Virus record (IMG/VR): IMGVR_UViG_3300045988_124082
DNA length: 64,000 nucleotides
From: a virus
Reading direction: 5' to 3' (one strand)
Below are positions 9,027-25,775 of this stretch, in pieces (the stretch's first letter is position 1; every line of letters begins with the position of its first letter). Made by a program: the position numbers and the translations under genes. The notes below the pieces were generated by a model. The model was not told the origin of the DNA and did not search any database. It saw nothing but the letters and a program-made list of their open reading frames with translations.

Positions 9027-9044
9027 AAGAAAGGCAGGGCAAAC

Positions 9045-9344: not shown

Positions 9345-9354
9345 GAGGTGTAAT

Positions 9355-9681: not shown

Positions 9682-9691
9682 GAGTGGTTAT

Positions 9692-10000: not shown

Positions 10001-10025
10001 ATATAAGAGAAAGGAAAATAAGACT

Positions 10026-10319: not shown

Positions 10320-10365
10320 AGGTATTTCAAAATCAGTGGAGTGATTTTTGTTAATACATGAAGAA

Positions 10366-10391
10366 AGGCGGGATTTATTCCCGTCTTTTTT
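10366..10391 (+). terminator. Rho-independent terminator
   Basis: GGCGGGA-tttat-TCCCGTC (one G-U pair) followed by T6. Confidence 0.7.
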
Positions 10392-10412
10392 CAAAATAGA
10401 AAGGAAATTAAG

Positions 10413-10808
10413 ATGAGCAAATTTAGATATTTAAATGAAGAAGAAACAAAAGTGTTATTACAGGTAACAGAATGGTTAGATAATCATTTCTTTAGTCCAG
10501 AAAATAAATTCGATGAAGAATATTTTGAGAAATACATGAGAGCAATCATTGACAACACAAGAGAAATGTACGAAGCGGTATACATTTGTGTGAACACAAA
10601 ACCTGTAACTGTAATGATTTATGACTATGTGCTTGACATTATTATTACCGATGCACAAGTTGACAAAGAAGATAGAGAGATTGTAGAGATTGCCTTTACA
10701 ACTTGGTTAATAAACATGACAGATAAACCATTTGAAAAGATTTTTGAATGGATGATTGAAGAAAGTTACAGGGGAAGAAAAGGAAGAGAGGATGAAGATA
10801 ATGAATAG
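10413..10808 (+). CDS. Hypothetical protein (no NNYY tail)
   Basis: ORF plus RBS AGAAAGGAAATTAAG. Confidence 0.65.
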   Translation: MSKFRYLNEEETKVLLQVTEWLDNHFFSPENKFDEEYFEKYMRAIIDNTREMYEAVYICVNTKPVTVMIYDYVLDIIITDAQVDKEDREIVEIAFTTWLINMTDKPFEKIFEWMIEESYRGRKGREDEDNE

Positions 10809-10944
10809 ATTTGAAACAGTAATGAAGTTAATTTGTTGGATTGCAGCAGTGACATTGGCATGGATGCACGTTTCAATTGTTGCAGTGATTGCACTTGCAT
10901 TGGTTGGAACTTTTGGAAGCGAGGTTGATTTGAGTGCAAAGTAG
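10801..10944 (+). CDS. Small membrane protein (47 aa)
   Basis: MNRFETVMKLICWIAAVTLAWMHVSIVAVIALALVG. Internal ATG with GGAAGAGAGG upstream. Confidence 0.5.
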   Translation: MNRFETVMKLICWIAAVTLAWMHVSIVAVIALALVGTFGSEVDLSAK

Positions 10945-11266
10945 AGAAACGAGAAGAAAAGTACACTTTGGAGATTGTCATGTAGGCGATGTTTTTGGAA
11001 TAGATAAAGATAGTCCTTATGTACGTAGAAAAAACAGCTTATATGATCTTGAACCATCAGATGTATTAAAGGCAAAAGTTATATATGTAGACAAAGAAGA
11101 TTCCTCCATTCGCATAAAGGCTTATGTAAATAATGAAGAGACTCCAAGATTTTCAGGTTGGCTTTACTCTTTGGTAAACAATTCAGGAATATTACTACAT
11201 AGGTCAGATTTGTTTATTGAGGACAATCTCAGATTCTTGTCAAAGAGAAAGAATAACTACTGGTAA
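10934..11266 (+). CDS. NNYY-tail small protein (family II); tail KRKNNYW
   Basis: GTG start; KVHFGDCHVGDVFGI. Confidence 0.7.
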   Translation: MQSRETRRKVHFGDCHVGDVFGIDKDSPYVRRKNSLYDLEPSDVLKAKVIYVDKEDSSIRIKAYVNNEETPRFSGWLYSLVNNSGILLHRSDLFIEDNLRFLSKRKNNYW

Positions 11267-11280
11267 AGAGAGGTGTAAGG

Positions 11281-11598
11281 ATGGAAGAGAAAAGAAAAGT
11301 ATGCTTCGATGATTGCGAAGTTGGCATGTTTTTTAGGATCGATAAAGACTGTCCATGGATGTATGACAATGAGTGGATGGATGGTTTTGATACATTGACA
11401 AACGCAGATGAGTTAAAAGTTAAAATTATCGATAAAGATGCTGATGATAGCAGTGTTGAGATAGAACTTTGGGCAGATGGTCAAAAGACACATATAACAG
11501 ATTGGCTCTATCAGTTTGAAGACGATCCAGAAGACAGAATTGGAAATAACCTTGAGTTTATATTAAAGAGGAAAAATAGAAAAAATAACTATTGGTGA
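11281..11598 (+). CDS. NNYY-tail small protein (family II); tail NRKNNYW
   Basis: KVCFDDCEVGMFFRI; RBS AGAGAGGTG. Confidence 0.75.
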   Translation: MEEKRKVCFDDCEVGMFFRIDKDCPWMYDNEWMDGFDTLTNADELKVKIIDKDADDSSVEIELWADGQKTHITDWLYQFEDDPEDRIGNNLEFILKRKNRKNNYW

Positions 11599-11608
11599 GG
11601 TGGTGTAA

Positions 11609-11869
11609 ATGGATAATGAATTAAAAATTGGAATGAAGTTCTTAGAAGTAAAAACCGGAATTGTCTGGAAGCTTACAGATATGAATTTTATACAAGAAGG
11701 GTTTTATATAATAGACAAATCATTGTGTTTTCAAGCTGTACGTATAAATACAGACGAGGATGATGTATGGAGAAGTACATCGTCAATGATACCTAAGACA
11801 ATGCTCGAAAGAAGATTGAAAAAAGGCGAATGGAAACAAATAAACAATAGAAAAAACAATTACTATTGA
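11609..11869 (+). CDS. NNYY-tail small protein (family IV); tail NRKNNYY
   Basis: ORF plus RBS GAGGTGGTG. Confidence 0.75.
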   Translation: MDNELKIGMKFLEVKTGIVWKLTDMNFIQEGFYIIDKSLCFQAVRINTDEDDVWRSTSSMIPKTMLERRLKKGEWKQINNRKNNYY

Positions 11870-13025: not shown

Positions 13026-13141
13026 GTATTAAAATTTTAGGACTTCGTCAAGATTGCTACAAAGTAATCATTGATGGAGTCCTTTTTAAATTCCCAACAG
13101 AACAAGAGTTTTTGGAATTCTTAGAGGAGATTGAGATATGA
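13022..13141 (+). CDS. Unlisted 39-aa ORF MSIKILGLRQDCYKVIIDGVLFKFPTEQEFLEFLEEIEI
   Basis: Below the track size cutoff. ATGA overlaps at both ends (13022-13025 and 13138-13141), which indicates translational coupling. Confidence 0.5.
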   Translation: MSIKILGLRQDCYKVIIDGVLFKFPTEQEFLEFLEEIEI

Positions 13142-13416
13142 GTTTTAGATTTGAAGTAGGTCAAGAGCTGGAATTACACAATAACTTGACGGATATGAAA
13201 GTTTACATGAGATCGGGAACGGTTGTTCGTATCTTAAGTAGAAAAACAAGAATGGATCATACACAAGGGGTTGAGAGAAATCGTTACAAGATTGCATATG
13301 AATTTCATACAAGCTTTTTGGAGATTGGAGATGGTTGTTACCACTGTGGAAAAGACTTTATCTGGGAAGAAGATTTAATTAGAGCTGTCGGTCAACGGAA
13401 GAATAATTATTATTAA
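13138..13416 (+). CDS. NNYY-tail small protein (family IV-like); tail QRKNNYY
   Basis: ORF coupled to the upstream small ORF. Confidence 0.75.
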   Translation: MSFRFEVGQELELHNNLTDMKVYMRSGTVVRILSRKTRMDHTQGVERNRYKIAYEFHTSFLEIGDGCYHCGKDFIWEEDLIRAVGQRKNNYY

Positions 13417-13428
13417 GAGGTGATTAAA

Positions 13429-13698
13429 ATGTGGAAAGTCGGAGATAGAGTCGTAATTATTCAAGATGCTAGAAGAAATTTAGAATCCTTTGTAGGTTTC
13501 AAGGGAACGGTTAACTTTGCAAGTAGAGATGAGATAAGTGTAGTTTTTGACAAATATGTAAACGGTCATGACTTACTAGGGGATTGTAAAAAAGGTTATG
13601 GATGGTTTTTGTCCTCAGACGGAGAGAACGAAAACGAAGCCGAAGCAAATGGAATGAGAGTCAAGAAAATTAACAACAGAAAAAATAATTATTGGTAG
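13429..13698 (+). CDS. NNYY-tail small protein (family I); tail NRKNNYW
   Basis: MWKVGDRVVII...GTV...VVFDKYVNGHD; RBS AAGAGGTGA. Confidence 0.75.
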   Translation: MWKVGDRVVIIQDARRNLESFVGFKGTVNFASRDEISVVFDKYVNGHDLLGDCKKGYGWFLSSDGENENEAEANGMRVKKINNRKNNYW

Positions 13699-13707
13699 GT
13701 GATAGGA

Positions 13708-13980
13708 ATGTGGGAAAAAGGTACAAGAGTTAGAATTATAAAATCAAACAGACTTATGACGCAAGTTGGTATCATGGGCACTGTGGTTTACATACATAAG
13801 GATGGAAATGATCGTTTTATAGTAGAGTTTGACGAACCTATGGATGGGAATTATATGACTACTTTTTGTGATTGCAAACCGAAGTGTTGGTGGTGGTTTG
13901 ATAATGTTCCGGGGAGAGTTGTTGAAACAGATGGTATAACAATTGAAAAAATAGGAAAAAGAAAAAACAATTATTACTAA
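13708..13980 (+). CDS. NNYY-tail small protein (family I); tail KRKNNYY
   Basis: MWEKGTRVRII...GTVVY...VEFDEPMDG...CWWWF. Confidence 0.75.
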   Translation: MWEKGTRVRIIKSNRLMTQVGIMGTVVYIHKDGNDRFIVEFDEPMDGNYMTTFCDCKPKCWWWFDNVPGRVVETDGITIEKIGKRKNNYY

Positions 13981-13992
13981 GGCGGTGAGAAC

Positions 13993-14340
13993 ATGTGGGA
14001 AATTGGAGATAGAGTGGCTGTTACAGACTTAGGCAAAGTCTCTCAAGAGAATTATGGAATTGAAATAAAGATTGGATACAAGGGAACTATTATCAACTTT
14101 TTAAAGATTGATGTCCCATGGAATTCTGATGAGATAATTAAATTCTTAGTAGAGTTTGACGAACCCATGGATGGACATGATGGAAATGATTTCGGTAAAA
14201 TAAGTGGGAAATCGGGACACTGTTGGTGGATGCGTGGAAACCAAGATAGTAATTTAATCAAATGGCGAGATAGCCGGGATTGTGAAGCACCATTAATATG
14301 TAAGAAAATCATGAAGAAAAGGAAAAACAATTTTTACTAA
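13993..14340 (+). CDS. NNYY-tail small protein (family I); tail KRKNNFY
   Basis: MWEIGDRVAV...VEFDEPMDGHDG...GHCWWM. Confidence 0.75.
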   Translation: MWEIGDRVAVTDLGKVSQENYGIEIKIGYKGTIINFLKIDVPWNSDEIIKFLVEFDEPMDGHDGNDFGKISGKSGHCWWMRGNQDSNLIKWRDSRDCEAPLICKKIMKKRKNNFY

Positions 14341-15147: not shown

Positions 15148-15513
15148 ATGAAAGTAGTAATCGCAGAAAACAGATTAGAGGTAGTAACAGGAATCAAAAA
15201 GGCAGACTTCGACAAACAGGTAACAGACATGACTGTTAAAGATGACAAAGGAAATGTGACATTTAAGTTAAAAGTTGGAGAACAGCCTAACATTTCAGTA
15301 CTTGGTTTAACTTGCAACACAACTGTTGACAAAGAGTTAGCGGTAACAATGATTCTTCCAATGGAAACAGATGTTGAAGAAATCAAAATCAAGTATGGTA
15401 AGGCTTTAGTAGCAGCTGAAAAGAATCTGAAAGTAATTGCTGACAGAATCGTAGCAGATACAGAAGCAGTTGATGGAATCTTTGCAGACACAGAAGAAGC
15501 AACAGAAGCCTAG
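15148..15513 (+). CDS. Small protein A1 (121 aa), paralog of 16018..16362
   Basis: Strong RBS AAAAGGAGAAAC. Conserved LGLTCN(T/S)T(V/I)DK motif. Confidence 0.75.
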   Translation: MKVVIAENRLEVVTGIKKADFDKQVTDMTVKDDKGNVTFKLKVGEQPNISVLGLTCNTTVDKELAVTMILPMETDVEEIKIKYGKALVAAEKNLKVIADRIVADTEAVDGIFADTEEATEA

Positions 15514-15569
15514 GAACAGCCTTGAGTAAAGGTAAAACAATATAATCTAATATTAATTCATTCACTTAT

Positions 15570-15597
15570 AGGACGTCTCCCAAGGGCGTCCTTTTTA
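15570..15597 (+). terminator. Rho-independent terminator
   Basis: AGGACG-tctcccaagg-CGTCCT followed by T5. Confidence 0.7.
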
Positions 15598-15641
15598 GTT
15601 ACACATTTACATATTCAGGAGATTAAAAGGAGAACAAAATT

Positions 15642-15881
15642 ATGATGATCAATGTAACATTAGCAACAACAGCAGGTAAAAGTCTTGTAACAGTAGAAGG
15701 AAACCAGACTCCATCACAAGTACTTGAAGAGAACAGCGTAGCAACAACAGGAGCTACTGTATCACTCAATATGAGACCACTTGCAGATAATGAAAAAGGT
15801 AAAACTTTTGAAGAATTAGGATGCACAGATGGTGATTCCGTAATGTTATCAGCAGTTGTAAAAGCAGACTCAGCAATGTAG
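15642..15881 (+). CDS. Small protein B1 (79 aa), ThiS/MoaD/ubiquitin-like beta-grasp candidate
   Basis: The pattern V-TL....VTVEG..TPSQVLEE......GATVSLN.....L..LGCTDGDSVMLSAVVKA resembles sulfur-carrier/Ubl proteins. There is no C-terminal GG (it ends KADSAM). Confidence 0.7.
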   Translation: MMINVTLATTAGKSLVTVEGNQTPSQVLEENSVATTGATVSLNMRPLADNEKGKTFEELGCTDGDSVMLSAVVKADSAM

Positions 15882-16017
15882 TAGTAAATCAAATTAGATA
15901 GTAAATATTGAAAATCATAACGCCATGGGAAGTAATAAATTAGATGGGACAGGATGATTTGAGATTTTACATATAAAGAAACTTAAAAAAATCAATGAAT
16001 TAAAAAGGAGAACAAAC

Positions 16018-16362
16018 ATGAAAGTATCATTAAAAGAAAACGCATTAGAAATCAACACAGAAATCAAAAAAGCTGACTTTGACAAGAAAGTAAGCAACAT
16101 GACAGTAACAAACAAAGATGGTGTACCAACATTTGTTTTACGCTGTGGAAGAGAGGGAGAAATTTCTCAGTTAGGACTTACATGTAACTCTACAATTGAC
16201 AAGAACTTAGCTGTAACAATTGTGTTGCCTCCAGAAACAAAAATGGAAGACATCAAAGTTGAATATGGTAAAGCCCTTGTAAATGCAGAAAAGGGATTAA
16301 AAGTCCTTGCTGGGAGAATTGAAGCCGATACGAAAGCTATTGATGCGATTTTTGCGGAATAG
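16018..16362 (+). CDS. Small protein A2 (114 aa), paralog of A1
   Basis: RBS AAAAGGAGAACAAAC; aligns along its whole length with A1. Confidence 0.75.
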   Translation: MKVSLKENALEINTEIKKADFDKKVSNMTVTNKDGVPTFVLRCGREGEISQLGLTCNSTIDKNLAVTIVLPPETKMEDIKVEYGKALVNAEKGLKVLAGRIEADTKAIDAIFAE

Positions 16363-16467
16363 AAAGTAAAATAATATCTAATGTAATTTCACAACAAACA
16401 GGGACAGTCAACCCAATAAGTCCTACGAGTAACTGTTAACCAAGCAAAATATTTTCTCTTTCGACTC

Positions 16468-16510
16468 AAAAGCTTTGCAGGTAGGGGTTGGACAGCAAAG
16501 CTTTTGTTTT
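16468..16510 (+). terminator. Rho-independent terminator
   Basis: AAAAGCTTTGC...GCAAAGCTTTT followed by a T run. Confidence 0.75.
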
Positions 16511-16559
16511 AGTAACTATAGAACACAAGTATTAAAAGGATATAAAGGAGAACAAAATT

Positions 16560-16799
16560 ATGATGATCAATGTAACATTAGCAACAACAGCAGGTAAAAG
16601 TCTTGTAACAGTAGAAGGAAACCAGACTCCAAGTGAAGTGTTAGCTGAAAATAATGTAGCAACAACAGGAGCTACAATCTCTATGAATATGAGACCATTA
16701 AGTGTAGCTGAATTAACTGATACATTTGAAGAGCTTGGATGTAATGATGGTGATTCTATCATGTTATCAGCTGTAGTTAAAGCCGATTCTGCTTTCTAG
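16560..16799 (+). CDS. Small protein B2 (79 aa), paralog of B1 (beta-grasp candidate)
   Basis: The first 24 codons plus the RBS are 100 percent identical at nucleotide level to B1; the remainder has diverged. Ends KADSAF. Confidence 0.7.
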   Translation: MMINVTLATTAGKSLVTVEGNQTPSEVLAENNVATTGATISMNMRPLSVAELTDTFEELGCNDGDSIMLSAVVKADSAF

Positions 16800-16827
16800 T
16801 TCTAGCAGGTAAAGAGAGAAGAACATG

Positions 16828-16864
16828 AAGAGCGTAGGTGTCATAGCCTACGTTCTTATTTTTT
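16828..16864 (+). terminator. Rho-independent terminator
   Basis: AAGAGCGTAGG...CCTACGTTCTT followed by a T run. Confidence 0.7.
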
Positions 16865-16901
16865 ACTTATTAATTATATTCATAAGAAAGGAAAATACAT
16901 T

Positions 16902-18626
16902 ATGGAAGAAAGAAAATTTAAAACAAATGACTACGTGGTAGTAAAGAATTGGGATGAATTGGTTGAAGAATATGGATTGGTTGATCCCGAATCTGTTAGA
17001 GAACAGATGAGGAATGATGAGGATTGTTATTGGTCAGAAGAAGAGATTAATGAATACAATCCAGAAATCATTAATGTTCCATGGGGAGCAAGAAAAGCAA
17101 TGATTGATGAACTTGTAACTATGGGATTGATGAAGGTCAAAGAATATGGAGAAGATGGAAGTGTCCAGCTGGAAAGCGATACTTACATTGACAGTATTAT
17201 CCCAGAAGAGATTTTACAGCCTGTAAGCGAAGATGAGGTTAAGAATTATATCTTTTGGCTTAATAAAAAAGATGATGATTTTGTAATGCAGGACTACGAT
17301 TTTGCTCAAGCAAATGGATTATTAACTTATGTAGGATTGGTCAATGGAAGTATTGATTTTATCGGAGGAAACAAAGGTAATGAATTAATTGCTTATTTCT
17401 ATGCAGCATCAATTTTAAGATCAATTGATTTTAATGAGGGAGTTACAGAATATCTAAGCCATTGTCATGAAGTTAGTGTTCATACATTTGACCATTTTTA
17501 CACTGACAGAAAATCACATTTGCAGATTGTAGCGATAAAAGATGTTTCTGAGGATGGAGAAGAAGAACTTGTTAATATGTGGACAGAAAGAGGCTGGGAA
17601 GAAGTTGAATTCCACAACGATAAAGTTTTTAAGGTGTTTACTCATCCTGAGCAGAAAGGAACCACAATTTTCTTAAATGGAGAAAAAGAAGATTATAAAA
17701 AAGACTTTGAAGCTTATGAACTGATCATGCAGATTGTTAGCCATGTTTATGGAGATACAATGCAGGATGTTTTAGAAGTTGTTAGCAATAGAGATAGATC
17801 AGAAGCTATGAATATGATCCGTGATATTTTCTCAGAAGCGGATAAGCAGTATGTGAAAATCAAAAACAAAATTAATATTGAAAACTTCCTAAAGGTTGCA
17901 TCTAAAGGTCAGCAGAAACATTTAGAACGAGAAGTTCAGAATAATCAGGACAGAGTTAATAGCTATAAAGATAATCTCAGACACTCTCTTAAAACATTAA
18001 GAGAGTCACAAGAAAGACTCTTCGGATATTTACATATGAAAGATGATTCCCAGTTCAATGAAGTAAGAGAAATGTTAAACATGATGGGTGATGATTTAAG
18101 TGATTTTAGGTGTAATCCTAGCGGTGATTGGTTTAGCTTTGCAATCGTTCAGCCATTGTTATATTGGGATGATGATATTTACGAAAGAAACTTTGATGAT
18201 GAATACTTTGAAGAAGAGGCTGAATATGAAAAGACGAAAAAAGTATTCGACAAAATCTTTAAGACAAGAGAATACACTTTGTATCTACAGCAAGCAATAA
18301 TGATTGACTTGGTCAATAATAAACCAGTTGCAATGAGAGATTATAATTATACAAATGATATGTATATTCCTAATCCACATTTCCATGAGTTTAACTGTTG
18401 GGGAGCAAATGAAGCAAATTTAATTGAAGCGATTTCAAACAGAGATTATATGTCAATTTTCAATCTTGTTAGATCAGCTGTCGCTGGAATTTCTTTATAT
18501 GATACTTCTGTAGTAGGAGCTTTCTTTAATTATTGTGAAGACAGATTTACAAATAAAAAATGTCTTAAAGTTCCAGGAAGAGAAGAATTTATTTCATTCA
18601 AAGAAGCAAGAGCATTGGAGGATTAA
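16902..18626 (+). CDS. Large hypothetical protein (574 aa); possible E2-like Cys segment near the C-terminus (speculative)
   Basis: ORF plus RBS. Followed 3 nt later by the JAB gene. C-terminal IPNPHFHEFNCWG loosely recalls the E2 HPN...C motif. Confidence 0.7.
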   Translation: MEERKFKTNDYVVVKNWDELVEEYGLVDPESVREQMRNDEDCYWSEEEINEYNPEIINVPWGARKAMIDELVTMGLMKVKEYGEDGSVQLESDTYIDSIIPEEILQPVSEDEVKNYIFWLNKKDDDFVMQDYDFAQANGLLTYVGLVNGSIDFIGGNKGNELIAYFYAASILRSIDFNEGVTEYLSHCHEVSVHTFDHFYTDRKSHLQIVAIKDVSEDGEEELVNMWTERGWEEVEFHNDKVFKVFTHPEQKGTTIFLNGEKEDYKKDFEAYELIMQIVSHVYGDTMQDVLEVVSNRDRSEAMNMIRDIFSEADKQYVKIKNKINIENFLKVASKGQQKHLEREVQNNQDRVNSYKDNLRHSLKTLRESQERLFGYLHMKDDSQFNEVREMLNMMGDDLSDFRCNPSGDWFSFAIVQPLLYWDDDIYERNFDDEYFEEEAEYEKTKKVFDKIFKTREYTLYLQQAIMIDLVNNKPVAMRDYNYTNDMYIPNPHFHEFNCWGANEANLIEAISNRDYMSIFNLVRSAVAGISLYDTSVVGAFFNYCEDRFTNKKCLKVPGREEFISFKEARALED

Positions 18627-18629
18627 AAA

Positions 18630-19595
18630 ATGAGAAAAATTAGAATTGAAGAATTAGATGCACAGAGATTAGTACAAGAAGTGATAGCGAAAGCTATCAC
18701 TTCTATTGGTTTAACCCCAGAAAAATTACAGATGGAAATTAATCCTAATGTAAAACTTAAAGAAGAAGAGAAAATTGAGATTGCTTTTTCAGAAATGGCA
18801 GAAAAGAAAATGTATTATCTCATTCACGAATGTGAAAAAGAAATTGGTTGGCATGGACTTGTCAGTCGAAGCGAAAATGGATTCTATGTAGAAGACATTA
18901 TTGTATTCCCACAGGAAGTTACAGGAGCTACTGTAACATCAGATGATGAGCTATATCCAACTTGGATGCTTAGTCAGCCAGATGAGATTTACAATAAGAT
19001 TAGATTTCATGGACATTCACATGTAAATATGGCAACAAGTCCAAGTGGTGTAGATGATACGTATCAGGAGCAGATTATTCAACAGTTTATGTCTAGTCCA
19101 CTTGATGAAAATAATTTTTACATATTCGGCATTTTCAACAAAAAGGGAAGCTATTGGTTAAATATTTATGACATTTATAACAATAAATTTTATGAGACAG
19201 ATGATATTAGTTATGTTTTTTATCAGTCAGATGAACAGGCATGGGCTAAAGAACAGATTAAAGAGAATGTAAAAGAAGAAGTAGCTGTAAAAACAAGTGG
19301 ATATTATTCTAATGGATATGGTTATAGAGGCGGTGGATACGGAACAGAAGAGCTGTATGATACTTGGAAAAAGAACTATGATAAAAACAAAGGCAAAGAG
19401 AAGCCAAAAAAAGATGAAGCAGAGTTGCGAAAAGAATTAAGTGGAGCAATTATTGCAGATTTAACACCTCCAAAATGGCATAGTAAATGGAGTAAATGTT
19501 TACAGAGGATGATTAGCTGTGATGAAAGTCTTGATGATTTAATTGAAGAGTATTGTATTACTTATCCAGATTATAGTGGAACAAAAAAGAAATAG
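18630..19595 (+). CDS. JAB/MPN+ (JAMM) metallopeptidase domain protein
   Basis: Complete JAMM signature: E in HECEKEIGWHG, then HGHSHVNMATSPSGVDD, which fits H-x-H-x7-S-x2-D. Confidence 0.8.
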   Translation: MRKIRIEELDAQRLVQEVIAKAITSIGLTPEKLQMEINPNVKLKEEEKIEIAFSEMAEKKMYYLIHECEKEIGWHGLVSRSENGFYVEDIIVFPQEVTGATVTSDDELYPTWMLSQPDEIYNKIRFHGHSHVNMATSPSGVDDTYQEQIIQQFMSSPLDENNFYIFGIFNKKGSYWLNIYDIYNNKFYETDDISYVFYQSDEQAWAKEQIKENVKEEVAVKTSGYYSNGYGYRGGGYGTEELYDTWKKNYDKNKGKEKPKKDEAELRKELSGAIIADLTPPKWHSKWSKCLQRMISCDESLDDLIEEYCITYPDYSGTKKK

Positions 19596-19607
19596 AGGAG
19601 GATGATT

Positions 19608-20285
19608 ATGAATACAAGTAAAGTTTTAGAATTTTTTGATGCACAGACATTAGTTAAAAAACCAGTTCATGTAATTGGATGTGGAGCAATTGGCTCAAAT
19701 GTCGCAGAACAGCTTACAAGATTAGGAGTCTCAGTGATTCATCTCTGGGATTACGATCATGTTGAGCCTAAAAATGTAACTAATCAGATGTTCTTTGATG
19801 GGGATATCGGAAAAGCTAAGGTAGATGCAATTGAAAATTTGTGTAAGTCAATTAATCCACAGATTAAAATAATCAAACATGAAAGAGGGATTGATGATCC
19901 ATATATTCTTACAGGATATGTATTCTTATGTGTAGATAATATTGAGCTTAGAAAGAAAATCGTAGAGGCCAATAAGTTAAATCCAAACTGTATTGCGTTC
20001 TTTGATTTTAGAATGAGACTTACAGATGCACAGCATTATTTTGCTGATTGTTCAGTTAAAGAACAGGTTGAAAACTTAATTGGAACCATGAATTTTACCC
20101 ATGAAGAAGCGGCTGCAGCAACTCCTACAAGTGCTTGTGGAGTGGAATTAAGTGTATGCTATACAGTTAAGAATATTGTTTGTTATGGAATTGCAAATTT
20201 TGTTAACTTTTGCCTAGGGAATGAACCAAAACAGATGATTATTACAGATATGAAGACAATGGATGTGACAGTATTCCCTATGTAA
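19608..20285 (+). CDS. ThiF/MoeB/E1-like adenylyltransferase
   Basis: VHVIGCGAIGSNVAEQLTRLGV..IHLWDYDHVEPKNVTNQ: a Rossmann GxGxxG followed by the D-x-D-x-V-E-x-x-N motif. ATG 19608 is preferred over 19602 on RBS spacing. Confidence 0.8.
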   Translation: MNTSKVLEFFDAQTLVKKPVHVIGCGAIGSNVAEQLTRLGVSVIHLWDYDHVEPKNVTNQMFFDGDIGKAKVDAIENLCKSINPQIKIIKHERGIDDPYILTGYVFLCVDNIELRKKIVEANKLNPNCIAFFDFRMRLTDAQHYFADCSVKEQVENLIGTMNFTHEEAAAATPTSACGVELSVCYTVKNIVCYGIANFVNFCLGNEPKQMIITDMKTMDVTVFPM

Positions 20286-20291
20286 GAGGTG

Positions 20292-20567
20292 ATGATCTTG
20301 ATAGAAGAAAAATATAAAGCGGTACCTAAAAATTATAAGGGGATTGTAAGACTTAAGCCAACAATAGCACGTTTCCGCCCTTATTACCATGCGTATGTTA
20401 AGTTGGAGGAGGGCTATCACTATACGGGTAATCCAGATCACACAGTATACGTTGAGTTGTACAAGACTTATCAAGATTTAACAAACAATGGTAGGTGTAT
20501 AAGGGAAGGCCTTATAGAAGAAAGAAGCTTATATGTTCCAAGAGAACGTAAGAATAATTATTGGTAG
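20292..20567 (+). CDS. NNYY-tail small protein (family III, VPKxYKG); tail ERKNNYW
   Basis: Starts 4-7 nt after the E1 stop; the start codon is ambiguous (GTG 20289, ATG 20292 or TTG 20298). KAVPKNYKGIVRL...GNPDHTVYV. Confidence 0.7.
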   Translation: MILIEEKYKAVPKNYKGIVRLKPTIARFRPYYHAYVKLEEGYHYTGNPDHTVYVELYKTYQDLTNNGRCIREGLIEERSLYVPRERKNNYW

Positions 20568-20575
20568 GTGAGAAT

Positions 20576-20848
20576 ATGTGGGAAAAAGGTACAAGAGTTA
20601 AGATAATAGGGGGAGCAAAAATCGGCTTAATGGGGACAGTGGTTGTTAAGTGCACAGAAACCCCTGTCAATGACATTAGAGATCGCTTCTTAGTAGAGTT
20701 TGACGAATCCATGGGTGGACATAGTGGAAATGGAGCTTATGAAGGAAAGCGGGGACATTGTTGGTGGTTTGATTATTGTTTAGAAAAGGTTACTATCACA
20801 GATGGCATAAGCATTGAGCAAGTCAAAAGGAAAAATAATTTTTACTAG
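20576..20848 (+). CDS. NNYY-tail small protein (family I); tail KRKNNFY
   Basis: MWEKGTRVKII...VEFDESMGGHSG...GHCWWF. Confidence 0.75.
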   Translation: MWEKGTRVKIIGGAKIGLMGTVVVKCTETPVNDIRDRFLVEFDESMGGHSGNGAYEGKRGHCWWFDYCLEKVTITDGISIEQVKRKNNFY

Positions 20849-20861
20849 GGGGGGTGATTAG

Positions 20862-21077
20862 ATGTGGGAAGTTGGTGACAGAGTAGTAGTTAGTAGTGCA
20901 TTTAGGCCTAAAGTGAAAGGGACAGTCATTGCTATAGATGCGGAATCTACAATGCCTGTATTGGTTAAAATAGGTGGAATAGGAACAGGTATGTGGTTCT
21001 ATGAAAATGGTGATGATTTAGTTTGGAGTGACATTACTTGCACACGAGTGAAAAAGAGGAAAAACAATTATTATTGA
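20862..21077 (+). CDS. NNYY-tail small protein (family I, short); tail KRKNNYY
   Basis: MWEVGDRVVV...GTVIAID. Confidence 0.75.
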   Translation: MWEVGDRVVVSSAFRPKVKGTVIAIDAESTMPVLVKIGGIGTGMWFYENGDDLVWSDITCTRVKKRKNNYY

Positions 21078-21093
21078 GAAAGGATGATGACAG

Positions 21094-21381
21094 GTGTTTA
21101 AGGTTGGAGATAGGATCGTACTAACAGAAGAAAGCCGTCAAAGCTGCAATATATTTCATGAACATCCGGGAGATACTGCAACGGTTATTGGAGTTTCGAA
21201 AGTATCAAGTAGGTCTGATTATGAATGTGTTTTAGAATTTGATAGACATATTGGTGGACATGATGGGTTAACCGATGCCACAGGCAAGAACGGTCATTGT
21301 GTTATCTATTATTTTGATTCAACACAGTGGGATAAGTATTTTAGGAAAATCCAAAGTAAACGTAAGAATAATTATTATTAA
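21094..21381 (+). CDS. NNYY-tail small protein (family I); tail KRKNNYY
   Basis: GTG start; FKVGDRIVL...LEFDRHIGGHDG...GHCVIYY. Confidence 0.75.
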   Translation: MFKVGDRIVLTEESRQSCNIFHEHPGDTATVIGVSKVSSRSDYECVLEFDRHIGGHDGLTDATGKNGHCVIYYFDSTQWDKYFRKIQSKRKNNYY

Positions 21382-21396
21382 GAAAGAGGTGATCGT

Positions 21397-21713
21397 ATGC
21401 CAGAGGATGTAAAGTACCGTCCAGTTCCTAAAGGGTATACAGGTGTTTTTAGGCTAAGAGAAGATACGACGTCCTTAGCCAATGAGTTTTATGGAGCATG
21501 GGGCATTATAGACGACAAATTTTTAATCGATGAAGATTATTATAATGAAGAAAATGAATTTAAGGGAGATCCCGATCATGTAATTCGAGTAAGTTTTTAT
21601 CCTAGCCTTTTAGATCTGCAAAGAGGTGAAATCTTATTAGAGAAGTAGGAAGAGTGTCTGGGACAGAAAAGTATTGTTATATTCCTTTCAAAAGAAAAAA
21701 TAATTACTATTAA
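21397..21713 (+). pseudogene. Frameshifted family III NNYY-tail gene (or recoding site)
   Basis: Frame 0 stops at 21646-21648. Frame +2 continues ...EVGRVSGTEKYCYIPFKRKNNYY-stop (21711-21713) and aligns with its paralogs. The shift window is about 21628-21648. Confidence 0.6.
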
Positions 21714-21728
21714 GAAAGAGGTAATCAA

Positions 21729-22043
21729 ATGGAAAATAATGGTATATATCCTCCAGTACCTAAGGGATACAAGGGTGTTTTTAGAGTTAGACCTGATATG
21801 ATAGGATCAGATAATATGTTCTATGAAGCATATGGTATTACAGGAAAAGGTATTATAGAAGACATTGATTATTTAGAAGGCCAAGGAGAATTTACAGGAA
21901 ATCCACATCATATAATTAAAGCCATTTTTTATCAAACCTATGAAGACTTAAAGAACAGAGAATGTATGATACAAGGAAGGCCTGTTAAAATAAAAGAACA
22001 CTTACTTTACCCCGTGTCAAACAAGAAGAACAATTACTGGTAG
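21729..22043 (+). CDS. NNYY-tail small protein (family III); tail NKKNNYW
   Basis: YPPVPKGYKGVFRV...GNPHHIIKA. Confidence 0.75.
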   Translation: MENNGIYPPVPKGYKGVFRVRPDMIGSDNMFYEAYGITGKGIIEDIDYLEGQGEFTGNPHHIIKAIFYQTYEDLKNRECMIQGRPVKIKEHLLYPVSNKKNNYW

Positions 22044-22053
22044 GTGATTTAAG

Positions 22054-22323
22054 ATGATAGACGCAAAAGATATTAAAGAGGGTATGAAAATTAAGTATAA
22101 TGGTTGGGAATGGACTATAACAAAAGTGTTTGCAAAATATAATAATGTCTTGGATCTTCGGAATGATTGTATTAAAAAAATCATTGATCAAGATAGTTCA
22201 TTGATTTGGATTGAAGCATCGAAGAGACGCTTTGTGCCTGAATCTATGACTATGGAGTGGTTCTTTAAAGAACTGAAATATGGAACAATAAAGATTTTAA
22301 ATCGTAAAAATAATTATTATTGA
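22054..22323 (+). CDS. NNYY-tail small protein (family IV); tail NRKNNYY
   Basis: ORF plus RBS TAGGTGA. Confidence 0.75.
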   Translation: MIDAKDIKEGMKIKYNGWEWTITKVFAKYNNVLDLRNDCIKKIIDQDSSLIWIEASKRRFVPESMTMEWFFKELKYGTIKILNRKNNYY

Positions 22324-22332
22324 GGTGATGTG

Positions 22333-22623
22333 ATGTATTTAGAAGACATTAAAGTTGGTCAGAAAGTGAACTATCGAGGTCATTCCTACATAATAACTAA
22401 AAATGTTGTAAAGTATCGGGGAATAATTAGACCTTATTATTCTACATATTCGTATATCAAGGAAAGTACAAATTGTCATAGATCACGAATGTATTTTCGA
22501 AGAGTAGAAAATAAAAATGAACCGATTGATGGATTTTGGTTATTATATGACGAGATTGAAGAAAAAATGGATCGAGGGCTTATTAAATTTTTGAACATGT
22601 CAAAGAAAAATAATTATTATTAA
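22333..22623 (+). CDS. NNYY-tail small protein (family IV); tail SKKNNYY
   Basis: ATG 5 nt after GAGGTG. Confidence 0.75.
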   Translation: MYLEDIKVGQKVNYRGHSYIITKNVVKYRGIIRPYYSTYSYIKESTNCHRSRMYFRRVENKNEPIDGFWLLYDEIEEKMDRGLIKFLNMSKKNNYY

Positions 22624-22638
22624 AGGGGGTGCCACAAA

Positions 22639-23940
22639 GTGAATGGAATCAATAAAAGGAAATTAGAACTGTTTATGGATGATCAGCTATGGAGACAAAA
22701 TATTACACATCAGCAAAGCAAAGGTGTACATAGAGATGTATTAAGAATTGTGTGTGATCCAGAATACAAAGCACGGCTTTTAGGAATGATCTGGGATGGT
22801 AATTACAAAATTGCACCTCCGTATGTAGTAGAAATTCCTAAAGACAATGGAAAAGTAAGAGAAGTGTATGTTAATCAGCCAATTGACAGATTTGTTATGA
22901 CACAAATCAATTATGTTTATATGCAATTATATGGTCATATGATTCATCCAAGATGTGTGTCTTATCAGAAAGGAATTGGAGTTAAAAATATCGTAGATGA
23001 TATTTGTATGGAGCTTAAGAAACATCAAGGAGCTGTCGGGTATAAGGTAGACATTAGTAAGTATTTTGACAGTGTAAGCCGTGAGGTCCTTAATGAAATG
23101 ATTGATAAAATTGATACAGGAAGTCCTATTGATCAGATCGTAAGAGATTATTATATGGATGATTGTATCATTGATCAGAAAGGAAATGTTATTGAGAAAT
23201 ACAAAAGTATGACTCAGGGTTGTGCAGTGTCTACATTCTTTGCCAATTGTGTTTTAAAAGATGTTGATGAAGAGTTAAGCAAGATGGATATTATTTATTA
23301 CAGATATTCAGATGATATCTTGATGGTTGGTAAGGATGCAGATAAGGCTTTGAAGATGTTGGGAGAAATGTTAGAAACGAAAGGACTTACATTAAATCCT
23401 AAAAAGGTAGAAACAGTCAGTACAGATCAATGGTTTACATTCTTAGGAGTGCGAATTAATGGACAGAAAAGAAGTTTTTCTGAGAAGAGCTTAAAGGAAT
23501 TTCAGAAACATATTAGAGAATATGTAAATAAGAAAGCAGGAATTGGTAGCGTAAAAGTTGCAATCAGACAAATTAATAAATATCTGTATTTGAATTTCTT
23601 AAGGAATCCTAATGAGTTTGGTTGGGCTGAGTATTTCTTTAGTATTGTGAATGTCGAAGATGATATTAAGACATTAGATATGTGGATTAAAGATACACTC
23701 AGAGGTTTGTATACTGGTAAGAGAGGAAAAGAACAGATAGGTGGACTAGGTGTAAATAAAGTAACTAATGAATGTGGAGTATTAAGAGGGAAGGGCAACA
23801 AAGTAAGTTCAAATTTACGTAAAACAAGAAGTGATAAAGACATTTTAGAAGAAGCAGGATATATCAGTATGAATGAAATGTATCATCAGTTTAGATATAG
23901 CAAAGAATTGTACAGGGCTTCATTGACGGCTTTATCTTAA
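22639..23940 (+). CDS. Reverse transcriptase (free-standing, group-II-intron-like RT with a thumb/X-like C-terminus)
   Basis: RT motifs in order: IPKDNGKVREV (1), DRFVMTQI (2), YKVDISKYFDSV (3), TQGCAVSTFFANCVL (4), YYRYSDDILMVG (5, YxDD), KGLTLNPKKVE (6), FTFLGVRI (7). GTG start behind AAAGGGGGTG, 15 nt after the last NNYY gene. Confidence 0.85.
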   Translation: MNGINKRKLELFMDDQLWRQNITHQQSKGVHRDVLRIVCDPEYKARLLGMIWDGNYKIAPPYVVEIPKDNGKVREVYVNQPIDRFVMTQINYVYMQLYGHMIHPRCVSYQKGIGVKNIVDDICMELKKHQGAVGYKVDISKYFDSVSREVLNEMIDKIDTGSPIDQIVRDYYMDDCIIDQKGNVIEKYKSMTQGCAVSTFFANCVLKDVDEELSKMDIIYYRYSDDILMVGKDADKALKMLGEMLETKGLTLNPKKVETVSTDQWFTFLGVRINGQKRSFSEKSLKEFQKHIREYVNKKAGIGSVKVAIRQINKYLYLNFLRNPNEFGWAEYFFSIVNVEDDIKTLDMWIKDTLRGLYTGKRGKEQIGGLGVNKVTNECGVLRGKGNKVSSNLRKTRSDKDILEEAGYISMNEMYHQFRYSKELYRASLTALS

Positions 23941-23987
23941 GTGTAACCTAACACGAGGTACTTATGTGAAATGTTATAAGTCAAATC

Positions 23988-24075
23988 AGATCCCTAGGAT
24001 ACACGGGTGATTCCATGCATGGTTGATAACCAGCATTCCATCAACCCGTTCCTCCCTGGATCTTATCATCATAAA
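23988..24075 (+). repeat. Hairpin-box unit 1: imperfect ~76-nt hairpin plus ATCATAAA box (24068-24075)
   Basis: AGATCC..AGGA..ACGGGT...ACCCGT.TCCT..GGATCT, then TATC-ATCATAAA. Confidence 0.55.
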
Positions 24076-24160
24076 GGAAATTTAGAAACGTGTTATTAAC
24101 ATGAACATAAGAAAGTTACTATGGACGTTGTATGTGAGACAATGGAATTACATATAAGGC

Positions 24161-24235
24161 GCGTTGAAGCTGCAGGATGACTGGCAATACATTGACCAAG
24201 TCATCCCTGCAGCTCAACCGCTTTATAATCATAAA
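24161..24235 (+). repeat. Hairpin-box unit 2: ~61-nt hairpin plus ATCATAAA box (24228-24235)
   Basis: GCGgTTGAAGCTGCAGGATGACT-loop-AGTCATCCcTGCAGCTCAAcCGC with bulges, then TTTATA-ATCATAAA. Confidence 0.6.
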
Positions 24236-24318
24236 AGAATAAAGGAACATAGCATGATTGTGAGCATACAAACAAGCTAACATGGGCTAAACATACGAGA
24301 CGTTGAATCATACATAAT

Positions 24319-24422
24319 AAGGGCACAGCTGCCTTATGCAGCGGGAAATTAGTCTCCTCGACAATAATTTCACCGCTGCCACAGGCGTGCGTGCCCTTAT
24401 TAATCATAAACCAATAGAGAAA
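24319..24422 (+). repeat. Hairpin-box unit 3: ~80-nt three-segment hairpin plus a 20-nt box ATCATAAACCAATAGAGAAA
   Basis: AAGGGCAC/GTGCCCTT, GCAGCGG/CCGCTGC and GAAATTA/TAATTTC stems. The box at 24403-24422 is identical to 26662-26681. Confidence 0.6.
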
Positions 24423-24459
24423 ACATGTCGCCAATGTAGAGTATGTAGAAAGGAAAATC

Positions 24460-24996
24460 ATGAAAAGTTTATTTAAAGTATTGTATGAGCTGTCACAAGG
24501 AAACACCTTAATGATTAATAGTTGCATGTCTTTTAGAATGACAACTGATCTATACAAAAGACAAGTGAGATTTAAGAAGTATAAGGTTGTTGATCAAGGA
24601 AGCGTAGTAAGTGATGTGACATTGTGTAGTGGAGAGGTTATTGAGTATGATGACTTAATAAAGGAAGGAGATTTAGATTTTATATTACCAATTGAATTAA
24701 ACGAAAAAGAAAATCCATATGAGGTTATTGAATACCTGTATGGATTATTTTATTGTTCAGTTCCTGATAGATCTGCTGTTCAAAAGAAACAGAATTTTAT
24801 AGCAAAAGGATTAAATGATTTTGGGGCAAATGATTTTACAGGAATGAGAAGAAGTGAAATTCAGCCATTGTTAGAACTCTATGTGTTACTCGCTGGAATG
24901 AAAGGATGGATCACTTGGAAAGATGATAAGTTGTTCTTTTGGAAAGGTGAGCATAAGAGTTTGTATATATATAGAAAATGGATTTTAGGTTATTAG
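24460..24996 (+). CDS. Hypothetical protein (178 aa)
   Basis: ORF with RBS GAAAGGAAAATC. First gene after hairpin cluster 1. Confidence 0.65.
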   Translation: MKSLFKVLYELSQGNTLMINSCMSFRMTTDLYKRQVRFKKYKVVDQGSVVSDVTLCSGEVIEYDDLIKEGDLDFILPIELNEKENPYEVIEYLYGLFYCSVPDRSAVQKKQNFIAKGLNDFGANDFTGMRRSEIQPLLELYVLLAGMKGWITWKDDKLFFWKGEHKSLYIYRKWILGY

Positions 24997-25013
24997 GAAA
25001 GGAAGAACGTAAA

Positions 25014-25775
25014 ATGAATGTAGAAAAGAGTTTGGAAAAAGCAGGAGTAGACACAAAGAAATATCCTTCATTAGCTATGCAGAATATTTTAGGATATCAA
25101 GGGAAAGCGTTTGCAGAAAATTCATACCTGTATAGAAAGATCATGGGAGATGGGCATGTGTTTAATCCTTATATACACAGAAGATGGCTTCCATATCAGT
25201 TTATGAATGCTGTCCATTGGACAAGACAGTATTATGCAGAGACTATTGGTTATGTAAAGATGCTTGAAAAAGAATTGATGCGTGGCAATAATGTAGATAA
25301 TTGGAAATATATGTACGATAAATTTGGAAAAGAGCTTAATGCTTTATATACACTCTCAAAAAGAGATAAAAAAGCGTATAAAGAAAGATGGGCTGCTTTT
25401 GGAAGATTAGAAATTTTGAAATATTTCTCTCAAGGGTTTGATTGTGTAGGGATAAATCAAAATACATTTTTGGAAATGAAAAATTTATTAGCGGATGAAA
25501 GATTTGAAGCTGAACGATATTGGCGATATCCTAATTGTTTATTGTATAAACGGCCACAATTTAGAAAAGATTTGGTAACAACAACTTTCCATTCAGGAAT
25601 TTATTTTACATTAAAACATATTATGATGTTTGATTATGAAAAATTACATATGTCTTCATCCCAAAAAGAAAGCCTAAAACGGATTAGAGAAGATTTAATT
25701 AACGGAGATTTCAATTATGAGCAGGCTTTTACAATTATTGAAGATTACGTAGCAAGATATTACAATCCAAGATAG
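25014..25775 (+). CDS. Hypothetical protein (253 aa)
   Basis: Internal ATG behind AGGAAAGGAAG is preferred over 24978, which overlaps the previous gene. Confidence 0.6.
   Translation: MNVEKSLEKAGVDTKKYPSLAMQNILGYQGKAFAENSYLYRKIMGDGHVFNPYIHRRWLPYQFMNAVHWTRQYYAETIGYVKMLEKELMRGNNVDNWKYMYDKFGKELNALYTLSKRDKKAYKERWAAFGRLEILKYFSQGFDCVGINQNTFLEMKNLLADERFEAERYWRYPNCLLYKRPQFRKDLVTTTFHSGIYFTLKHIMMFDYEKLHMSSSQKESLKRIREDLINGDFNYEQAFTIIEDYVARYYNPR

Follow-up and report, generated by a model that had tools for sequence, protein, structure and literature searches.

Why should a run of small genes ending on almost the same six residues lie between an E1-like gene and a reverse transcriptase (RT) in the genome of a gut phage? 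The question is raised by a virus record of IMG/VR (IMGVR_UViG_3300045988_124082), whose 64,000-nucleotide stretch was analysed as a whole and is called the window here. The run, array 2, fills positions 20289-22623 with eight consecutive small open reading frames on the + strand, placed between the ThiF/E1 gene and the RT gene (Table 1). An earlier note on this DNA regarded that position as the strongest positional evidence that the proteins work with the neighbouring enzymes. We show here that array 2 is one part of a larger set: a C-terminal tail with the consensus [RK]-K-N-N-[YF]-[YW]-stop is common to about 20 small genes in three blocks (8730-11869, 13138-14340 and 20289-22623). The reading that we prefer, with a probability of roughly one in three, is that the tail is a docking motif on diversifying early proteins and that the ubiquitin-like (Ubl) machinery of the adjacent cassette is its most likely receptor.

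The borders of array 2 are tight. The E1 stop ends at 20285, and GTG 20289, ATG 20292 and TTG 20298 are in-frame start candidates of the first array gene, so that the gap measures 3, 6 or 12 nt by start choice; TTG 20298 may be the true start because an SD-like GAGGTG overlaps 20286-20291. At the other end the last stop lies at 22623 and the RT begins with GTG at 22639, leaving the 15 nt already described, with the SD AGGGGGTG. Gaps inside the array are 8-16 nt with SD-like GAGG/GGTG in each, and a terminator-like site was not found between E1 and RT. Gaps of 3-16 nt, SD motifs and the lack of a terminator suggest that array 2 is probably co-transcribed with the Ubl-X-JAB-E1-RT cassette. Eight genes are indeed present, with the tail in frame in seven. 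In the gene at 21397, frame 1 runs into a stop at 21648 before any tail; the tail can be read in the +1 frame, which ends at 21713. The tail is out of frame because one A was lost from an A-run near 21630 (a 1-nt deletion; GGTGAAA in the window versus GGTGAAAA in the relatives L001 and L009), and the gene is either a pseudogene or the product of an assembly error; its counterpart is intact in L001 and L009 and missing in L004. The tails had been called identical, whereas those of array 2 end, in order, on YW, FY, YY, YY, YY, YW, YY and YY. Likewise, two blocks had been counted, and the eight further tail genes at 8730-11869 bring them to three. The assignment of the bodies was borne out by all-against-all BLASTP: the VPKGY...GNPDH family (D; 20292, 21397 and 21729) is restricted to array 2 and absent from the first array of that note, and array 2 also holds copies of the MWE-GDRV family (A; 20576, 20862 and 21094) and of the IKxGxK family (C; 22054 and 22333). 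Block 1 lies directly upstream of the cassette and adjoins its 5' side, and a gene without a tail (10413-10808) interrupts the run of tail genes in Block 0.

Table 1. Positions of the tail genes, the Ubl-X-JAB-E1 cassette and the UG27 system in the window.
Feature	Position	Strand	Remarks
Block 0, eight tail genes (8730, 9045, 9355, 9692, 10026, 10934, 11281, 11609)	8730..11869	+	families A, B, C
Block 1, four tail genes (13138, 13429, 13708, 13993)	13138..14340	+	mostly family A
Ubl-X-JAB-E1 cassette	15148..20285	+	two 114-121-aa protein/Ubl pairs, X, JAB, E1
Two pairs: 114-121-aa protein + 79-aa Ubl	15148/15642 and 16018/16560	+	
Protein X, 574 aa	16902-18626	+	
JAB/MPN+ peptidase	18630-19595	+	motif HSH-x7-S-xx-D
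ThiF/E1	19602-20285	+	Pfam ThiF 9.6e-22
Tail gene, family D (VPKNYKG...GNPDH)	20289..20567	+	tail RKNNYW; start possibly TTG 20298
Tail gene, family A (SH3/CAP-Gly-like barrel, MWEKGTRV...VEFD...GGHSG...GHCWW)	20576..20848	+	tail RKNNFY
Tail gene, family A, short (71 aa)	20862..21077	+	tail RKNNYY
Tail gene, family A (MFKVGDRI...)	21094..21381	+	tail RKNNYY
Tail gene, family D, frameshifted	21397..21713	+	RKNNYY in +1 frame
Tail gene, family D (VPKGYKGVFRV...GNPHH)	21729..22043	+	tail KKNNYW
Tail gene, family C (DIKEGMKIKY)	22054..22323	+	tail RKNNYY
Tail gene, family C (DIKVGQKVNY)	22333..22623	+	tail KKNNYY; alternative GTG start 22330
UG27 RT system	22639..25775	+	RT, non-coding region, two accessory ORFs
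RT	22639-23940	+	PADLOC RT_UG27
Structured non-coding region	23941-24459		three long hairpins
Small accessory ORF, RTas346	24460-24996	+	PADLOC match 6e-14
Probable large accessory ORF, 265 aa	24978-25775	+	by place and size

The tail is far above chance expectation and is maintained as a peptide. Twenty ORF ends match NN[YFW][YFW]-stop, all on the + strand and between 8.7 and 22.6 kb, whereas shuffles yield 0.23 on average and never more than 2. Pairwise codon differences in five tail codons are 379 synonymous versus 126 non-synonymous, while the five codons directly upstream show 70 synonymous versus 821 non-synonymous differences. Since the tail codons vary synonymously, selection acts on the peptide. 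The end is always aromatic-aromatic-COOH, every tail contains at least one Tyr, and in two genes of the relative L163 a Thr takes the place of the Lys at -5 (KKKTNNYY). The bodies that carry the tail fall into four families, A-D, with undetectable mutual homology (hhalign probability of A versus B, C and D below 1%).

The RT that follows array 2 matches PADLOC RT_UG27 over residues 5-431 of 433 (E 1.3e-164; the runner-up, UG26, at 9e-52). Behind it lie the three hairpins of region 23941-24459 (z = -7.7), with a short AUCAUAAA-like run after each of them, and the ORF at 24978-25775, which has no PADLOC match, is found at 51% identity in L160-L162. With its full-length RT match, then the three-hairpin region and RTas346, the system resembles UG27 of gut phages (Mestre et al. 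2022, PMC9226505). According to the sections available of the two accounts (PMC9226505; bioRxiv 10.64898/2026.09.22.753630), about 14,000 UG27 loci are known, the system consists of three proteins and a non-coding RNA, with accessory clusters 346 (small) and 337 (large) and an intergenic array of ~150-nt structured RNAs, and it produces cDNA in E. coli with no further genes from the phage. Those sections present UG27 as stand-alone and mention neither Ubl/E1/JAB nor tail genes, whereas here it sits at the RT position of a Ubl-JAB-E1 cassette. Since UG27 is reported as self-contained, the RT would have no need for the tail proteins.

These observations bear on the idea that the conserved element acts as nucleic acid or through the RT, be it as a recombination or cassette site, in translational coupling, as a DGR-like RT target or with the tail Tyr residues as protein primers. 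The block adjoins the RT, the array genes are hypervariable and each tail offers at least one Tyr, all of which this idea would accommodate. However, the order of residues is fixed while synonymous sites vary freely, G/C third positions included, the RT is of the UG27 class and not a DGR enzyme, no repeat joins the non-coding RNA region or a template-like copy to the array genes, the variation is scattered through the bodies and spares the C-terminus, and UG27 is reported to make its cDNA with its own three proteins alone. We consider this explanation largely refuted and highly improbable. Specific candidates were rejected: diversification of the array by a DGR or by the RT, because the RT is UG27 and no repeat is shared between its surroundings and the array genes; an integron-like cassette array at the DNA level, because copies of the tail DNA are just 60-90% identical with mostly synonymous differences; and an AU-rich translational enhancer, because the residue order is fixed and the tail contains G/C third positions and TGG.

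A second trait of the tail genes is the speed at which their bodies change. Identity between strains is 67-98% for tail genes versus 96-100% for the cassette and RT, dN/dS is 0.2-1.1 versus 0.02-0.3 in E1, JAB, RT and X, and the bodies evolve at about ten times the rate of the adjacent enzymes; mosaic recombinants between tail-gene paralogs are present. The arrays lie upstream of genes for DnaB, a split Pol III alpha and RecD2, with small orphan genes around them, and by this gene order the tail genes are early-region phage genes. A virion-targeting signal that loads these proteins into the capsid for co-injection would be expected to look similar: a single short terminal peptide, conserved on many small proteins that are unrelated and evolve fast. 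The internal proteins of T4, encoded in a hyperplastic locus, carry an N-terminal capsid-targeting sequence that is cleaved by the prohead protease and serves their packaging, and encapsulin cargo is loaded through cargo-loading peptides. The tail genes share with the T4 proteins the arrays of small unrelated fast-evolving members, the one short terminal peptide and a copy number that varies between related phages. The T4 signal, however, is N-terminal, cleaved and a packaging signal, while the tail is C-terminal and belongs to the early region. The genes lie in the early/replication part, away from structural genes, and neither a prohead protease site nor a structural neighbour was seen. We hold virion targeting to be very unlikely.

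The cassette between Block 1 and array 2 offers a candidate partner. The Ubl profile, built from 11 homologs, has ubiquilin UBL, SAMP2 and PF1061 as its top PDB matches (E 0.009-0.1 only), and the H-S-H-x7-S-x2-D motif of the JAB peptidase is evident in the translation, with the homolog in L020 matching Pfam JAB at 0.0019, under the curated cut-off. PADLOC E1-E2 models match the ThiF/E1 protein over its adenylation part only, and neither X nor the 121-aa protein has a UBC/E2 match in Pfam, NCBIfam, PADLOC or PHROGs. Foldseek gave no usable match for X; its model is poor, and since it has a pLDDT of 55.6 from only five sequences such matches are meaningless. A ThiF E1-like domain, a JAB/MPN+ peptidase and a small beta-grasp-like protein occur together in Bil, Bub and type II CBASS (Cap2/Cap3) as they do here. 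This cassette differs from those systems in being phage-encoded, in lacking a detected E2, in a Ubl terminus that reads K-A-D-x-A plus 0-2 residues among homologs instead of ending on Gly, and in its conserved partners, an uncharacterised 430-580-aa protein and an RT. A Gly or GG end is absent and the Ubl of the window terminates in ADSA[MF]; for this reason conjugation by the cassette is no more than putative.

Is the link between tails and cassette conserved? The earlier note had proposed gene neighbourhood in homologous phages as a check, and within this lineage the E1-RT slot always holds tail genes, 2-8 of them. Relatives with 88% identity in E1, 85% in RT, 58% in JAB and 48-65% in X have two, three or eight there, always including one member of family A and one of family D, with unchanged tails. 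Outside the lineage the picture is different. About 25 other phage lineages carry the Ubl-X-JAB-E1-RT cassette, there with RTs of the retron type, and nearly all of these lineages have no shared-tail genes within 10 kb, so the cassette enzymes generally do without tail partners. The L020 lineage has a tail of another sequence, PDIWEYI. In most of these lineages the E1-RT spacer is non-coding and about 300 nt long (170-740 nt), and an Rfam scan of seven cassette loci detected no known retron RNA in such spacers. In the lineage of the window, the place of the usual retron-type RT has been taken by a UG27 RT. Related cassettes are found in Clostridia/Bacillota MAG contigs. The tails themselves are narrowly distributed: a scan with the tail DNA pattern recovered multi-tail loci in this lineage only, among the matches listed, plus single chance matches, and families B and D were not found outside it in IMG/VR. 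No annotated phage matched 8700-24500 by megablast, and there were likewise no matches for the tail genes in PHROGs and Pfam or for the profiles of families B, C and D among PDB sequences. Among the matches listed, and on sequence criteria, the tail family is present in a single phage lineage only, and its co-occurrence with the cassette is therefore inseparable from common descent; as all tail-bearing genomes share ancestry, the linkage may be inherited rather than selected.

The claim that tail proteins work with the cassette enzymes is consequently upheld in part. In its favour are the slot kept in divergent relatives, the missing terminator and the contact of Block 1 with the 5' side of the cassette; against it are the self-contained UG27 system, the tail-less cassettes elsewhere, the single lineage and the distance of eight of the 20 tail genes, which lie more than 3 kb upstream of the cassette, past a Bro-N gene. 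We grade the position as suggestive, not as strong evidence. The same facts lend themselves to a reading in which the tail docks onto a host hub and the position inside the cassette is incidental; it might be a C-terminal degron by which a host protease keeps early proteins short-lived, or a handle for some other host machine. Genes in an early region among small orphan genes, bodies that diversify like arms-race genes, a non-coding spacer permissive for gene insertion in most other lineages, eight tail genes far away and cassettes that do without tails elsewhere would all be in line with it. Yet no host motif or partner was identified, and the block stayed in its slot while X diverged to 48% identity. 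A host hub is possible, if on the unlikely side.

Docking onto the cassette machinery, the preferred reading, would account for the tail as follows. Array 2 is one of three blocks of some 20 small early genes, a set restricted to this lineage, and all that its members have in common is a C-terminal [RK]-K-N-N-[YF]-[YW]-COOH, predicted to be flexible and exposed, which is borne by bodies of at least four unrelated kinds. This peptide would be a short linear docking motif that plugs fast-diversifying small binding modules into a single common receptor, most likely X, JAB or E1 of the Ubl machinery. The tail proteins could serve as substrate adaptors that can replace one another, or they could themselves be substrates, with the basic patch beside the tail as the site of tagging. 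The analysis shows the excess of the tails, their constraint as a peptide, the fast, mosaic and number-variable bodies, the slot kept within the lineage and the predicted disorder of the tail; that the tail binds a partner at all, that this partner belongs to the cassette and that the cassette conjugates a Ubl is inferred. The tail-less cassettes elsewhere, the lack of an E2 match, the non-Gly end of the Ubl, the eight remote tail genes, the Thr at -5 in L163 and the shared ancestry count against this reading.

In line with a flexible and exposed tail, the AF2 model of family A, the largest of the families (20576..20848, pLDDT 76), is a folded barrel apart from the tail, where pLDDT falls below 50 and disorder is predicted. 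The fold of this barrel leads to a further possibility, namely that family A reads the tail and the 20 proteins form a network of readers and tails, in head-to-tail assemblies or auto-inhibition, where the ligands would be families B, C and D. CAP-Gly domains, readers of acidic-aromatic EEY/F-COOH tails at the C-terminus (p150Glued, CLIP-170, EB1, alpha-tubulin), are the best Foldseek matches of the model in the PDB (E 0.03-0.5, probability 0.9-1.0, TM 0.45-0.64), led by p150Glued 1txq_A (E 0.03, probability 1.0) and including CLIP-170 and TBCB. By hhalign, with CAP-Gly sequences confirmed against the PDB, family A reaches 78% against the p150Glued domain and 89% against four CAP-Gly domains, aligning VGDRV...G.GTV...VEFDxxxGGHDG with VGxRV...G.G.V...GVxLDEPxGKNDG. 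The small barrel may have a CAP-Gly-like fold, and the tails, always aromatic-aromatic-COOH, end aromatic at a free C-terminus. On the other hand, the array 2 family A genes have no Pfam CAP_GLY match at E<=0.1, their profile reaches E about 1 only against PDB sequences, and tandem-repeat homologs match the generic SH3-like SH3_12, DUF4314, DUF4926 and SH3_15 instead; among viral structures Foldseek returned only uncharacterised or KOW-like small barrels. The loop aligned to GKNDG reads GGHDG, GGHSG or DGHDG, and tail-less homologs outside the lineage keep GHDG, so that this motif is not tied to the tail. The tail-less homolog P0104 is a truncated ortholog from the same lineage. The His/Cys pattern may be plain metal binding, AF2 does not dock the tail in cis, and the tail is basic where CAP-Gly ligands are acidic. 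A reader network strikes us as doubtful.

A more detailed version of docking onto the cassette is that the tails are handles of an expandable, phage-encoded set of adaptors for a machine of ubiquitin-like conjugation or deconjugation. Their small, hypervariable domains would catch host (defence) proteins, which the invariant K-N-N-aromatic-aromatic-COOH would deliver to Ubl-X-JAB-E1; family A may read tails in this scheme as well. We regard it as rather unlikely in this specific form. It has a parallel in viral F-box/PRANC (ankyrin-F-box) adaptors of ubiquitin ligases, expanded and diversifying families whose members bind their targets through a variable body and carry a conserved element for docking at the C-terminus, there a folded domain of about 40 residues that docks onto Skp1/cullin. 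Both share the variable body, the conserved C-terminal element and the expanded multigene family linked to a ubiquitin-type machine. In contrast, the element has only six residues here, an E2 or E3 is not recognisable and docking is putative.

A literature search returned nothing relevant on the tail strings, on CAP-Gly in phages or on a retron with ThiF and JAB, and no description was found of the widespread phage cassette of which the E1-RT adjacency forms part. A six-residue C-terminal peptide kept on about 20 otherwise unrelated, fast-evolving early proteins would be a clean natural case of a short linear motif used as a phage address label. Once its receptor is identified, an entire group of genes from viral dark matter would receive a function in one step. 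If the receptor is the adjacent Ubl-JAB-E1 machinery, phages, like eukaryotic viruses, would assemble repertoires of adaptors for ubiquitin-like modification, and if the adaptor reading is true, the tail genes would be the bacterial-virus counterpart of the F-box/PRANC families.

Array 2, a block of eight small genes, fills the slot between the ThiF/E1 gene and the reverse transcriptase (RT) of a phage genome of about 130 kb, of which the window represents the early and replication part (near-identical IMG/VR contigs measure 115-134 kb). The genes are separated by 8-16 nt, with a Shine-Dalgarno-like GAGG/GGTG in each gap. As the earlier note had stated, the last stop codon lies 15 nt before the RT start, while the proposed 4-7 nt between the E1 stop and the first gene become 3, 6 or 12 nt with a GTG, ATG or TTG start, respectively. 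Seven of the eight genes end in the tail [RK]-K-N-N-[YF]-[YW]-stop. In gene 21397 one A is missing (GGTGAAA, window 21625-21650, versus GGTGAAAA in the related contigs L001 and L009, where the A-run is intact), and this one-base deletion makes the frame stop at 21648 and leaves the tail in the +1 frame, up to 21713. The gene is absent from the contig L004; in the window it is either decaying or misassembled at the homopolymer. Replication genes follow downstream (DnaB-like helicase, split Pol III alpha, RecD2, dUTPase). Pol III alpha is distributed over at least three ORFs, and an intron, intein or homing element may lie in the intervening stretches. An Rfam tRNA match may represent an intron-containing or otherwise unusual tRNA; ARAGORN found no tRNA in the window.

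Features of the window
Feature	Position	Strand	Remarks
Block 0	8730-11869	+	eight tail genes, families A, B, C; upstream of Bro-N gene
Block 1	13138-14340	+	four tail genes
196-aa gene	14356-14946		between block 1 and cassette
Duplicated pre-Ubl/Ubl region	15148-16799		pairs 15148/15642 and 16018/16560
Terminator-like hairpin	15570-15592	+	3' of first 121-aa gene
Terminator-like hairpin	16828-16857	+	3' of second Ubl gene
ThiF/E1 gene	19602-20285	+	Pfam ThiF 1e-21
Array 2	20289-22623	+	eight small genes, between ThiF/E1 and RT
RT	22639-23940	+	RVT_1 6e-21
Non-coding region	23941-24459		519 nt, 3' of RT
Rfam tRNA match	30140-30289		150 nt, 43.7 bits
Pol III alpha, whole	51443-56707		split
Pol III alpha piece	51443-52948		PHP + NTPase
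Pol III alpha piece	54054-55124		NTPase + finger
Pol III alpha piece	55313-56707		HHH

The window has 20 ORFs whose last four residues before the stop are NN[YFW][YFW], all on the + strand and all within 8.7-22.6 kb, compared with a mean of 0.23 expected from shuffles. They form three blocks and not the two originally described, block 0 being the addition. The tail is written in many ways, with AAA/AAG, AAC/AAT, TAT/TAC and five different Arg codons in use. In pairwise comparisons the five tail codons show 379 synonymous and 126 non-synonymous differences, while the five codons directly upstream show 70 and 821. At the DNA level the tail regions share only 60-90% identity, and this, together with the synonymous variation, indicates that what is conserved is not an element of DNA or RNA. 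The tail is real, and selection acts on it as a peptide.

The bodies, i.e. the remainder of these proteins, fall into four families by all-against-all BLASTP: A (MWExGDRV...VEFD...GGHDG...GHCWW; eight or nine members, three in array 2), B (five, none in array 2), C (IKxGxK; three, two in array 2) and D (VPKGYKG...GNPDH; three, all in array 2). This confirms that array 2 adds a family lacking from the other array then recognized, besides further copies of A and C. Profile-profile comparison revealed no relation of A to B, C or D (probability <1%). In IMG/VR searches families B and D are confined to this phage lineage; family A is widespread, its profile matching 1,963 cluster representatives, among which tandem-repeat proteins with SH3_12, DUF4314 or DUF4926 signatures are numerous. 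The family A genes of array 2 have no Pfam match. An AlphaFold model of one of them, gene 20576, predicts a six-stranded barrel (pLDDT 76) and a disordered tail (pLDDT <50), and its closest PDB matches are CAP-Gly domains. With hhalign, family A and CAP-Gly align at 78-89% probability, GGHDG opposite GKNDG, with weak support from sequence only (E ~1). From this similarity in fold and profile, the CAP-Gly-like barrels of family A might themselves be the tail readers, which we regard as doubtful. The 196-aa gene has a family A-like N-terminus (MFKVGDSIKI) and lacks the tail; among nine close relatives it occurs only in the window and in L007.

The RT is a UG27 RT (PADLOC 1e-164). The fold of the non-coding region behind it (MFE -164.6 kcal/mol, z = -7.7) has three long hairpins, with a AUCAUAAA-like run after each, which is consistent with the ncRNA array published for UG27. 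Further on come an RTas346 homolog and then a 265-aa ORF. Published work describes UG27 as a phage system that comprises an RT, a pair of accessory proteins and an ncRNA array, and these parts alone yield short cDNAs in E. coli (PMC9226505). Thus, UG27 does not need the tail genes. The view that their position is strong evidence for work with E1, JAB and RT is supported only in part: the RT link is the weakest, the link to the cassette of Ubl, X, JAB and E1 genes is plausible. Nucleic-acid or RT-coupled mechanisms are largely excluded.

The 79-aa cassette proteins are Ubl-like, with ubiquilin UBL and SAMP2 as top PDB profile matches at E values of only 0.009-0.1, and the 321-aa protein bears a JAMM motif. 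No E2 was found; X (574 aa) and the 121-aa protein have no such match in Pfam, NCBIfam, PADLOC or PHROGs. The pre-Ubl/Ubl pair is tandem-duplicated (DNA repeat 85% over 168 nt); contig L186 has a single pair. Two strong hairpins (9-12 bp stems and a T run), the sole + strand terminator-like ones outside coding sequence between 8 and 27 kb, may attenuate transcription inside the cassette.

Loci collected from IMG/VR lineages and MAG contigs with an E1 alignment show the order (pre-Ubl protein)-Ubl-X-JAB-E1-RT conserved in about 25 diverged phage and MAG lineages with E1 40-54% identical (L010, L020, L168-L178, L187-L200, beside window 15148-23940). Ubl-X-JAB-E1-RT is kept in 11 further IMG/VR lineages, L010, the large L020 group and 11 of the 12 MAG contigs reaching >500 nt past E1, mostly Clostridia/Bacillota. 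We found no description of this cassette in the searchable literature. In all of these loci outside the lineage of the window the RT is retron-type and usually follows E1 after a non-coding spacer of ~300 nt; a UG27 RT in this position and genes inside the spacer occur only in this lineage. Neighbourhood conservation, suggested earlier as a check, gives a divided answer. Within the lineage the slot stably holds tail genes: two or three in relatives with E1 88%, RT 85%, JAB 58% and X 48-49% identical, and eight, their families in almost the same order, in a 173-kb contig (X 65%). Families A and D are both represented in every one of these slots, and the tails are unchanged. Beyond it, shared-tail genes, all full-length paralogs, flank the cassette in two cases only, as family A genes ending in PDIWEYI(K) in the L020 group (L011-L035; e.g. 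L020 5608-5868, 12745-13029) and as five SH3-like genes ending in C-x-C-E/D-S-L-L in L196 (3244-3492; 10074-12256); in the other ~25 lineages none lies within 10 kb. The early-gene context and the existence of cassettes without tails would suit a host hub or degron as receptor, with position incidental, an option we hold possible but on the unlikely side. Our leading candidate receptor is the adjacent Ubl machinery, at a probability of roughly one in three; it would read the tail, as suggested by the persistent insertion into an otherwise uninterrupted cassette and by probable co-transcription.

Among strains of one phage species, cassette proteins and RT are 96-100% identical and tail genes 67-98%. 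The dN of tail genes is ~10x that of E1 or RT and their dN/dS 0.2-1.1 versus 0.02-0.3 for E1, JAB, X and RT; since the ratio is below 1 at large distances, they are real coding genes. Their database homologs include paralog mosaics, and copy number varies in relatives (7 or 8 genes in array 2, 4 to 8 in block 1), with the tail kept in all variants. The searchable literature yielded no description of the motif or its families. Many variable proteins sharing a single short terminal address are known from T4 internal proteins, encapsulin cargo and F-box/PRANC families, which the tail genes resemble in general design. By architectural analogy the tail could serve virion packaging, which seems improbable. 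The data support reading the tail as a short linear motif at the C-terminus, one handle shared by small early proteins whose repertoire is diversifying.
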